IMG/VR virus record: IMGVR_UViG_2711768012_000020
Source of the DNA: a virus
Taxonomy: Duplodnaviria; Heunggongvirae; Uroviricota; Caudoviricetes
Reading direction: 5' to 3' (one strand)
Length of the DNA stretch: 36,971 nucleotides
Shown piece after piece: positions 1-6,871 of this stretch (its first letter is position 1; each line of letters opens with the position of its first letter). The notes below the pieces were generated by a model. That model made no database searches. It saw only the letters and a program-made list of their open reading frames with translations, and was not told the origin of the DNA. A program made the translations under genes and the position numbers.

Positions 1-573
1 ATGTTTTGCGAAGAAAAAGTAGCTCAAATGGCTGCATACCTACTTCTTAAGCGAGGTGGGCGCATGGCATATCTGAAATTGATGAAGCTGCTCTATCTGT
101 CTAACCGCAAGTCGATTTTGAAGCATGGCAGGATGATCGGCGAAGATAGCCTTTACTCTATGAAATTTGGTCCAGTCATGTCGAATACGCTGAACTTGAT
201 TCGTGGTAAGGCTGAAGGTATTGGTGACTACTGGTACAACCTGATAGAGACGAACGGGCATGATGTGTTGTTGCGTTCAGATCCGAGGGAAATGGATGCA
301 GACGAGGTCTTTGATGAGTTGAGCCGTGCAGATATCCGGATTTTAGATGAAATCTATTCTCTGTATGGGCATATGAACCGATTTGATCTCGCAAACATGA
401 CGCATTTAGAAAGCGTTTGTCCAGAGTGGCACAATCCTGGCAATTCTCGTAAGCCTATAGACCTGAAAGAAATGCTGATCAGTGAGGGTAAAAGCGAGGA
501 TGAGGCTAATCGTATAATTGGCAAAATGGAAGAATCTCAGAAACTTAAGGAATTTTCTTTGCAATTATCATGA
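1..573 (+). CDS. Panacea (DUF4065)-domain protein, putative PanA-like antitoxin; 5' end may be cut by the window edge
   Basis: 190-aa ORF from nt 1; N-terminal pattern AYLLLKRG..MAYLKLMKLLYLSNRKSIL...YSMKFGPVMSNTLNLIRGK matches the conserved core of Panacea/GepA/SocA-like proteins as I recall it; stop overlaps the next ORF start (ATGA at 570-573). Confidence 0.55.
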   Translation: MFCEEKVAQMAAYLLLKRGGRMAYLKLMKLLYLSNRKSILKHGRMIGEDSLYSMKFGPVMSNTLNLIRGKAEGIGDYWYNLIETNGHDVLLRSDPREMDADEVFDELSRADIRILDEIYSLYGHMNRFDLANMTHLESVCPEWHNPGNSRKPIDLKEMLISEGKSEDEANRIIGKMEESQKLKEFSLQLS

Positions 574-989
574 CGGATTATCAGCCATACAGGAAAGGAA
601 CTGTGCTTGCCCCAACTGGGCCATGCAATCATCTTCATGTGATTTGTAATGATCCTGTTTATTACCCCGTTAACGATTGTTATTGTGTTTTAGTTGTTAA
701 TATTTCTAGTATCAAGGATGGTGTCCCCCACGATCCGTCTTGCGTCTTGAATTCTGGTGATCATCGCTTTATCAAGCATCCAAGTTATGTTGTTTACGCT
801 GAAGCTATAATTTGGCGAGTGGATAACATGGTTAGAAAGCAGCGATCGGGTGAGATTTCCGTTCATGATGATATGCCAGAAGCTACATTCAATAGAATTC
901 TGGACGGTTTTGATATATCTGATGAAGTTACGCCAAAGAACCTTAAATTTAAAAATAAATATTGCGTATCATCTATTGATGATGAGTAA
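570..989 (+). CDS. Hypothetical 139-aa protein, candidate toxin/effector partner of the upstream Panacea-like gene
   Basis: ORF with a 4-nt ATGA overlap to the upstream gene (translational coupling); AT-rich relative to neighbours; Cys/His-rich N-terminal half; no family recognised. Confidence 0.45.
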   Translation: MTDYQPYRKGTVLAPTGPCNHLHVICNDPVYYPVNDCYCVLVVNISSIKDGVPHDPSCVLNSGDHRFIKHPSYVVYAEAIIWRVDNMVRKQRSGEISVHDDMPEATFNRILDGFDISDEVTPKNLKFKNKYCVSSIDDE

Positions 990-1028
990 ACAACAGGAAT
1001 TGTTTCGGTATAGCTTCTGGAGTTTTCT

Positions 1029-1202
1029 ATGGAAGATCAAAAAGCAACCAAGCCACAGGTTAAGTTCGACACAATGAAAGCATTCGCAGGTATGGGTGCT
1101 GCTGTTGAAGTTCTGATGAAGGCTGCTCCTAATGCGTTCACTCACGCTACTGTCTCTGGTAAAGAGCAGCAGGGTAAGCTTCGTCGTCGCAAAGCAGCAT
1201 GA
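1029..1202 (+). CDS. Small hypothetical protein (57 aa)
   Basis: ATG at 1029 preceded by GGAG at 1019-1022; ends immediately before an intrinsic terminator; below the 60-aa cutoff of the ORF track; function unknown. Confidence 0.3.
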   Translation: MEDQKATKPQVKFDTMKAFAGMGAAVEVLMKAAPNAFTHATVSGKEQQGKLRRRKAA

Positions 1203-1221
1203 TCATAGCTGGTGCTTTTTG

Positions 1222-1248
1222 AAAACCCGCCTTTAGGCGGGTTTTTTC
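1222..1248. terminator. Bidirectional rho-independent terminator between convergent genes
   Basis: aaaacccgcc-ttta-ggcgggtttttt: GC stem flanked by an A-run and a T-run, between + genes ending at 1202 and a - gene ending at 1250. Confidence 0.6.
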
Positions 1249-6038: not shown

Positions 6039-6871
6039 ACAGTTTAACGGCAAATAACCGTTTGTCGCAACAGCTGGTGGTCAGCGTCGCTGAACACCTG
6101 TTGTTACGGCATGAATGCAGATTACCAAATCACCTGGCTGTAAGTAACCACAGAGAACTTTACCTGACTGTGGGGGGCGAGTTGTGCAGGAACTTAACCG
6201 CTGGTTTCGTGACGGAAGAGGACTTTATGTTCATGTTATTCGTTGGGAGCCAGAAACACAGCGCGTTATCTATCTTCGCAAAGACTACCCGCATGAGTGC
6301 TTTAGTCCTTTGTGGAAATTCAGGCGTGATTTTGTTGAGTGTGAAGGACCACCAGCACATTGATTCTGCCATTCCGGGACGTTACACTGTTCAGGCACCT
6401 TATAAAGCGGGTGCCGGGATTGGCGTCCTGGAATTGATCAAGGCGATATATGACGCGCCAGCGTCTTTTTTATCGTCCGCATTTGCTCACATCAAAGTTA
6501 TGGTGGGCTGGGCGGGGGCATCGAAAGATGCGCCGGTTTCCTTGATCACCGGTTACGCCAACCCCGTTCAGTTCACCACCAGCGAAATTGGCGTTTCCGG
6601 TGGTGGAAGTATTTCACCGATCAAGGAGGCTGCCATCATGGCTACTGTCCCAGCCCTCACTCGTCTGAATGATGAAGACTTACATAAACTCAGTTATGTA
6701 ACAACTGCACTACGTGCTCTGCGCAAGGTAACTCTTTCGGATCCGCAGGCACATCAGGTTCTGGTAGAAACCCTTCTTAACTTGCAAGCTGAACGTATTC
6801 GTCTGGCGGATAAGGCTAATTTTCATATTCACCGTCTCCTGAATATCAGCGGAGGGCATCGTCATGCTTAA
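6035..6871 (+). CDS. Hypothetical protein, first gene of the coupled replication-region operon
   Basis: 278-aa ORF, the only long open frame on either strand here; start overlaps the upstream stop (ATGA at 6035-6038); no domain recognised. Confidence 0.45.
   Translation: MNSLTANNRLSQQLVVSVAEHLLLRHECRLPNHLAVSNHRELYLTVGGELCRNLTAGFVTEEDFMFMLFVGSQKHSALSIFAKTTRMSALVLCGNSGVILLSVKDHQHIDSAIPGRYTVQAPYKAGAGIGVLELIKAIYDAPASFLSSAFAHIKVMVGWAGASKDAPVSLITGYANPVQFTTSEIGVSGGGSISPIKEAAIMATVPALTRLNDEDLHKLSYVTTALRALRKVTLSDPQAHQVLVETLLNLQAERIRLADKANFHIHRLLNISGGHRHA

Follow-up and report, generated by a model that had tools for sequence, protein, structure and literature searches.

A probable toxin–antitoxin pair of the PanAT T6 type, with a Panacea-domain protein and a MazF-fold partner, at the attachment-site edge of a lambdoid Escherichia coli prophage

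The DNA analyzed here is the 36,971-nucleotide viral sequence of the IMG/VR record IMGVR_UViG_2711768012_000020, and this whole stretch is called the window below. The window is a lambdoid E. coli prophage, with an early region of the yfdP/Q/R type, a PrtN-like excisionase, and lambda-like tail genes. Positions 1–1248 are its end proximal to the attachment site (att), and the first two open reading frames (ORFs) at this end, ORF1 and ORF2, are the subject of this study. Positions 1–989, with the two genes referred to as panA and panT, very likely constitute a two-gene type II toxin–antitoxin (TA) module of the PanAT class, T6 type. The features of the pair are as follows.

1–573, + strand: panA (ORF1), a complete predicted antitoxin of 190 amino acids, consisting of a standalone Panacea/DUF4065 domain and a charged C-terminal tail of about 50 residues
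570–573, + strand: ATGA sequence, the start/stop overlap of panA and panT; panT has no Shine-Dalgarno sequence
570–989, + strand: panT (ORF2), a predicted toxin of 139 amino acids with a MazF/Kid/CcdB-type β-barrel followed by C-terminal helices, PanT cluster T6

ORF1 carries the core of the Panacea/DUF4065 domain, as an earlier note on this DNA had claimed from the letters alone. The match with the Pfam profile PF13274 (SocA_Panacea) has an E value of 1.8e-18 and a score of 67.9 bits against a cut-off of 25.7, and residues 27–137 cover profile positions 1–109 of 113. The GPV motif, a Panacea signature described as critical for neutralization by Kurata et al. (PMC8832971), is found at G57-P58-V59. 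Among 24 homologues, G57 and P58 never vary, and at least 90% have V59. PanA has no N-terminal accessory domain, and its N-terminus leads straight into the Panacea domain. The completeness of the gene should be noted, since the first letter of the window is also the first letter of ORF1. WP_000458583.1, a "Panacea domain-containing protein" of E. coli AR_0085, is annotated from this same ATG, with a GAGG Shine-Dalgarno sequence 7 nt upstream, and the N-terminus MF(S/C)E(E/Q)KVAQ is common to ORF1 homologues. These observations indicate that ORF1 is complete. A search of the DNA before panA (locus L001) revealed no inverted-repeat operator, and a sigma-70-like site 127 nt upstream of the gene, beyond the window edge, scores no better than chance.

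The start codon of panT lies inside the stop codon of panA, the gene is AT-rich (G+C content of 38.6% versus 50.3% for the window), and its product is rich in Cys and His (six residues each, 8.6% of the total), all as first described. The overlap, together with the lack of a Shine-Dalgarno sequence for panT, implies translational coupling. The ATGA sequence is kept in most gammaproteobacterial relatives, and elsewhere the gaps range only from −1 to +27 nt. In RefSeq, the start of ORF2 is placed at GTG 603 to give a protein of 128 amino acids (WP_014640052.1). This start would remove a conserved N-terminal strand that includes the invariant Gly10. The homologues keep the N-terminal sequence MTxYxPYRKGT, and the stop-overlapping ATG is conserved, even in relatives that do not have the GTG. 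For these two reasons, ATG 570 is preferred; it is probably the true start, and GTG 603 is probably wrong. In the Pseudomonas clade, many RefSeq entries have 108 amino acids as compared with 132 in full length, and the gene is unannotated in Pseudomonas phage Sirocco. The family thus appears to be systematically mis-started or missed in annotation.

ORF2 gave no significant match in Pfam, NCBIfam, PADLOC, or PDB sequences (phmmer was used for PDB), and it corresponds to phrog_19071, a group of unknown function, in PHROGs. Its homologues form 62 clusters at 90% identity in Enterobacterales, Vibrio, and Shewanella. A profile search with the ORF2 family returned 2704 representatives at 50% identity (E ≤ 0.001), indicating that the family is large. 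In the protein collection, PanA (190 amino acids) and PanT (139 amino acids) both return one and the same 90%-identity cluster of 541 members, which also holds an N-terminally extended "DUF4065 domain-containing protein" of 232 amino acids. This suggests either a fused or read-through gene call bridging the two proteins or a clustering artefact.

The pairing of the two genes was examined in 116 fetched loci, which represent 55 distinct DNA sequences. Enough upstream DNA was available for 91 of them, the rest being cut at the edge of a contig or of a predicted prophage. A panA homologue lies directly upstream of panT on the same strand in all 91, with gaps of −4 to +27 nt. Kurata et al. (PMC8832971) used a FlaGs criterion of a two-gene locus with the partner at most 100 nt away in at least two species, and panAT has this arrangement in 91 of 91 loci from many genera. 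The contexts are of at least six kinds: the att edge of the lambdoid group to which the window belongs, the slot between cI and N in lambdoid prophages of Pantoea, a site beside the repressor in a P2-like prophage of Vibrio, an integrative island of Shewanella, the tail region of a Klebsiella phage, and a plain chromosomal site in Pseudomonas. Both genes are under strong purifying selection. Among relatives of 83–87% identity, the proportion of nonsynonymous differences (pN) is 0.08–0.10 and that of synonymous differences (pS), which is saturated, is 0.73–0.82. The identities of PanA and PanT fall together across the relatives, as expected of cognate partners. The claim of a coupled and conserved two-gene pair of the TA type is therefore upheld by the 91 of 91 adjacency. 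The earlier note had also named two outcomes that would speak against it, no Panacea match for ORF1, and a partner that is non-toxic on its own and never seen beside Panacea genes; the match was found, and the partner is always adjacent.

Some loci depart from this picture in detail. In Acerihabitans sp. (L017), the panT homologue beside an intact panA looks degraded; the ATGA is present, and the frame opens 33 nt later. In a Bathymodiolus symbiont (L036), only a short panT fragment is found beside an intact panA. Judging from the sequences, these two loci may represent toxin decay leaving an orphan antitoxin. In many predicted viral contigs among the IMG/VR loci (L037–L101), the first letter coincides with that of panA or panT, so that the pair is split. 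This looks like an artefact of prophage-boundary calling at gene edges, which would hide the antitoxin in context analyses.

The relationship of the pair to catalogued systems is as follows. In the catalogue of Kurata et al. (2022, PNAS; PMC8832971), the toxins associated with Panacea fall into 88 clusters. Cluster T6 is described there as "EndoA/PemK/MazF-family RNAses" by HHpred, with the antitoxin gene first, overlaps of −4 or −1, and a PanA lacking an N-terminal domain ("noNTD"), features that the window pair shares. The T6 entries in their Dataset S1 include Pantoea septica LMG 5345 (order A then T, −4) and Yersiniaceae bacterium 2016Iso4 (order A then T, −1). We sought ORF2 homologues by scanning species-representative genomes. 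The homologue in P. septica LMG 5345 (L016) has 56% identity with ORF2, and that in strain 2016-Iso4 (Chimaeribacter; L015) has 55%. Both are located directly after panA, with overlaps of −4 and −1, respectively, as tabulated. A third homologue, SDU72800.1 of Pseudomonas moraviensis (43% identity, E = 6e-34), was found by a search seeded with the unannotated homologue of phage Sirocco. The Sirocco PanA begins with MIFSEQKVAQ, the ten residues restored to the P. moraviensis PanA by Kurata et al. (PMC8832971). The fluorescent pseudomonads have a bare chromosomal panA-panT pair with an overlap of −1, as seen in the 90%-identity cluster representative of SDU72800.1. This context and overlap agree with the published entry for P. 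moraviensis (order A then T, −1, "NotPhage"; PMC8832971). From the species and strain, SDU72800.1 is probably the tested protein WP_083201923.1.

By these homologies, ORF2 belongs to PanT cluster T6, and the pair is a member of the already described T6 type, not a new kind of system. In both the window pair and the P. moraviensis pair, the first gene encodes a standalone Panacea antitoxin and the second, with an overlap of −4 or −1, a toxin of 132–139 amino acids. The T6 toxins share with ORF2 a MazF-like fold and the lack of a domain match in CDD or Pfam. The two pairs differ in location, since the window pair is at the att edge of an E. coli lambdoid prophage whereas the validated P. moraviensis pair is chromosomal. 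They also differ in that the E. coli pair is missing from the published table; the RefSeq accessions of the window pair are not in the supplements, and the E. coli entries of the table belong to clusters T1 and T3 (PMC8832971).

Expression of the P. moraviensis T6 toxin stops the growth of E. coli, its PanA neutralizes this effect, and the two proteins form a stable complex in pull-down assays (PMC8832971). Neutralization across the tested PanAs is independent of ClpXP and Lon (PMC8832971). The T6 representative specifically inhibits incorporation of 35S-Met, not that of thymidine or uridine (PMC8832971); it thus inhibits translation in the manner of the MazF control.

PanA shares the Panacea/DUF4065 domain with SocA of the type VI system SocAB in Caulobacter, and some sources name PanA a "SocA family protein." In that system, SocA serves as an adaptor for ClpXP, and the toxin SocB, which is unrelated, acts on the replication clamp. 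A mechanism of this kind, in which PanA would deliver the toxin to ClpXP for degradation instead of inhibiting it by binding, is nevertheless highly improbable for the window pair. ORF1 scores only 13.5 bits with the NCBIfam SocA_antitoxin equivalog model (cut-off of 190), and the partner is not SocB-like. The independence of the tested PanAT pairs from ClpXP and Lon and the stable complex of the T6 pair also argue against it.

The structure of PanT was predicted by AlphaFold2 from an alignment of 34 sequences (mean predicted local distance difference test score, 88.9; predicted template modeling score, 0.82). The model consists of a β-barrel followed by helices. In a Foldseek search of the PDB, 49 of the 50 top matches of the model are MazF, and in the viral structure library BFVD, entries named "PemK-like protein" come first. 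The modeled fold of PanT is thus MazF-like, that is, an SH3-like barrel with a C-terminal helix. The vague resemblance to the SH3-barrel pattern of MazF/CcdB, put forward as speculation in the earlier note, proved correct at the level of the fold. The accompanying idea that the partner might have a new toxin fold or belong to an unrecognized family does not hold, with a fold that is MazF-like and a family already catalogued as cluster T6. CcdB has the same superfold, and PanT could in principle be a gyrase poison and not a translation inhibitor or RNase. We regard this as very unlikely, since the ten better structural matches are all MazF or Kid RNases and the T6 representative blocks incorporation of 35S-Met, not of thymidine or uridine.

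PanT can be compared with the MazF/PemK/Kid endoribonucleases (type II MazEF systems, PF02452), which are likewise small proteins encoded second in a coupled bicistron. PanT differs from them in having no significant match with the PemK_toxin hidden Markov model (HMM), and its partner is a Panacea protein, whereas that of MazF is of the MazE/AbrB/ribbon-helix-helix type. PanT also has two extra C-terminal helices and a short β1-β2 loop as compared with MazF. The putative active site should be noted. His21, Cys58, and His65 are invariant throughout the PanT family, and Asp55, Gly63, Phe67, Ser72, and Tyr76 are nearly invariant. By eye, "KGTVLAP...HLHVICNDP...VNISS" of PanT parallels "RGDVYFADL...RPVLVIQND...AAIT" of Bacillus subtilis MazF, a comparison without significant alignment. 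This parallel places His21 at the apparent position of the MazF catalytic Arg and Ser46/47 at that of the catalytic Thr, with Cys58 and His65 as additional invariant residues. A four-ligand Cys/His zinc site using His23 and Cys26 was considered and rejected, as both residues are unconserved in the wider family.

Several observations weigh against the TA assignment or against an MazF-like activity. The PemK_toxin HMM matched only one of 55 members of the ORF2 family (E = 0.11), and ORF2 itself gave no match. The ORF2 family profile retrieved no MazF from the PDB sequences. An hhalign comparison of the family with a three-sequence MazF/Kid alignment gave an E value of 0.16 that covers the C-terminal helix only, and its global mode was meaningless. 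As the fold is MazF-like in the model and the link is not recovered by sequence, the family seems to be a remote, sequence-divergent clade of the MazF fold. The catalytic Arg of MazF does not appear to be conserved in the family, which has the invariant His, Cys, and His instead, and for this reason an RNase chemistry is only inferred; our confidence in the chemistry of PanT is lower than in the TA assignment. With isoelectric points of 5.8 for PanA and 5.6 for PanT, the former lacks a marked acidity and the latter is not basic, which is atypical for classical TA pairs though not disqualifying. Toxicity and neutralization of the E. coli pair are extrapolated from a homologue of about 43% identity, and the identity of SDU72800.1 with the tested WP_083201923.1 is deduced from species and strain. 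Finally, Kurata et al. observed no toxicity in E. coli for eight of the 25 predicted PanTs that they examined (PMC8832971).

This proportion of about a third, together with invariant residues that differ from the MazF catalytic ones, leaves room for a pair that does not function as TA in E. coli, with PanT being non-toxic or having another role and PanA being a partner or chaperone. We consider such a pair improbable. Toxicity in E. coli itself has been shown for a homologue of this cluster, and the strict co-occurrence of the two genes, their co-divergence, and the strong purifying selection on both also argue against it. The type II TA assignment given at the outset is therefore the one we retain.

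A comparable arrangement has been reported in Serratia phage vB_SspS_OS31, in which a DUF4065/GepA-like gene overlaps by one base with the next gene, for which HHpred gave a match to MazF, and a new TA pair was proposed (PMC7556043). Both this pair and the window pair consist of a DUF4065 gene of a temperate phage and an overlapping MazF-like gene. The vB_SspS_OS31 toxin was not detected as an ORF2 homologue by tblastn of phage records, and it may fall in a different MazF-like PanT cluster, such as T5.

The surroundings of the pair in the prophage contain the following features.

1029–1202, + strand: ORF3, a basic ORF of 57 amino acids, phrog_2741 (8.4e-36), with its own GGAG Shine-Dalgarno sequence
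1221–1246, + strand: intrinsic terminator with an 11-bp stem, six GC pairs, and a T run; minimum free energy of −19.6 kcal/mol, z score of −3.5
1250–1531, − strand: xis, convergent with ORF3, the terminator lying between the two

In E. coli AR_0085, the DNA corresponding to this end of the window belongs to a prophage integrated in dusA and starts about 250 bp in from the prophage end. The integrase gene of phage Lys8385Vzw is located just upstream of the matching region on the opposite strand; the phage genome has this gene on the far side of the attachment site. The ORF2 gene is carried by 205 of 5426 complete E. coli genomes (about 4%). In phage mEp460, homology to the window starts at position 1016, and ORF3 (gp24) adjoins xis with no panAT. 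The slot between integrase/att and ORF3-xis, where positions 1–1016 of the window have panAT, is filled there by gp23, an unrelated hypothetical gene of 177 amino acids (2284–2817 in L117). In this lambdoid group, the slot is a hot spot for cargo exchange. In the window it is occupied by panAT, a cargo ("moron") insertion that lies at the att-proximal edge of the prophage, immediately before ORF3 and xis.

ORF3 had been counted as part of the unit. It is not found beside the pair in the Shewanella, Vibrio, Pantoea, Pseudomonas, and Klebsiella phage contexts, and it is present in mEp460 without the pair, indicating that ORF3 is a gene of the phage backbone and not a third component of the module. 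It is probably on the same transcript as panAT. The terminator at 1221–1246 closes this rightward transcript between ORF3 and xis. It had been described as bidirectional, which is supported only in part; the terminator is canonical on the + strand alone, with its 11-bp stem and T run, and the scan called nothing on the − strand at this position.

Directly after xis, an ORF on the − strand (1568–2401) encodes 277 amino acids, or 260 if the start is at Met18, as is probable. AR_0085, mEp460, and Lys8385Vzw have exonuclease and DUF551 genes at this position. The ORF has a G+C content of 29% (50% in the window), and the N-terminal segment of its product is hydrophobic. It matches phrog_14996 (unknown function, 2.9e-178) and has no match in Pfam, NCBIfam, or PADLOC. 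Of 5426 complete E. coli genomes, 99 contain the ORF, and its annotation is "hypothetical protein" in every case. The ORF appears to be a second cargo gene of foreign origin, a candidate for a role in exclusion or abortive infection. Further inside the window, the Hfq-binding small RNA isrK (6395–6471, + strand; Rfam, 64 bits) is followed directly by a C4 antisense RNA (6496–6583, + strand; Rfam, 82 bits), both above the gathering scores. Positions 6395–6583 are a c4-like immunity RNA cassette of the P1/P7 type within a lambdoid prophage.

The proposed mechanism of the module is as follows. In the lysogen, a promoter immediately within the end of the prophage would drive constitutive co-transcription of panA and panT, and translation of panT would be coupled to termination of panA. 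PanA would bind PanT and inhibit it in the type II manner. Free PanT would block translation; it is probably an endoribonuclease with mRNA, tRNA, or rRNA as its target. The phage may benefit through stabilization of the prophage, through abortive-infection defense when PanA is lost or triggered, or through both.

With respect to stabilization, the pair would penalize loss or excision of the prophage, as an unstable PanA decays and a stable PanT stays. The location at the very edge of the prophage, beside att and xis, fits this role, as do the many kinds of integrative elements with which the pair travels and the classical part of type II TA modules on mobile elements discussed by Kurata et al. 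(PMC8832971). However, the neutralization by tested PanAs that is independent of Lon and ClpXP leaves the assumed lability of PanA unsupported, and the two genes are also maintained on their own in chromosomes. An addiction role is thus plausible, though less probable than not.

The alternative role, which is compatible with the TA mechanism, is abortive infection, in which detection of an infecting phage by the Panacea protein would lead to release or activation of the MazF-fold toxin and so protect the lysogen population. The pair occupies cargo positions expressed in lysogens: the att-proximal edge in the window, the position of rexAB between cI and N in the Pantoea lambdoid prophages, and the site beside the repressor in the Vibrio P2-like prophage. 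These positions favor a role in defense or exclusion. Ernits et al. (2023) proposed Panacea as a sensor domain and linked TA systems to phage defense, which is in line with such a role. Contrarily, ORF1, ORF2, and ORF3 have no match in PADLOC-DB v2 at E values up to 0.1, our literature search found no published defense phenotype for any T6 PanAT, and the fluorescent pseudomonads carry the pair as a bare chromosomal insertion with no phage context. We therefore regard abortive infection as a plausible role, though likewise less probable than not.

A more specific version may also be considered, in which the T6 PanTs are a catalytically distinct offshoot of the MazF fold that has lost the Arg and has the invariant His21, Cys58, and His65 and the nearly invariant Asp55. 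Such toxins would use a different chemistry (His acid-base catalysis, a metal site, or a Cys-His center) and perhaps another RNA target, and the E. coli copy would serve in abortive-infection defense with Panacea sensing the incoming phage. Taken as a whole, this version is rather unlikely.

The assignment of the pair to the T6 type gives panT, called "hypothetical protein" in RefSeq and in phage records, a function and a mechanistic hypothesis, and its RefSeq start codon is corrected. The pair provides a tractable member, native to E. coli, of a PanAT cluster that has invariant His, Cys, and His residues on a MazF scaffold. What remains novel is the catalytic constellation of the T6 toxins and the role of the copy in the E. 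coli prophage.

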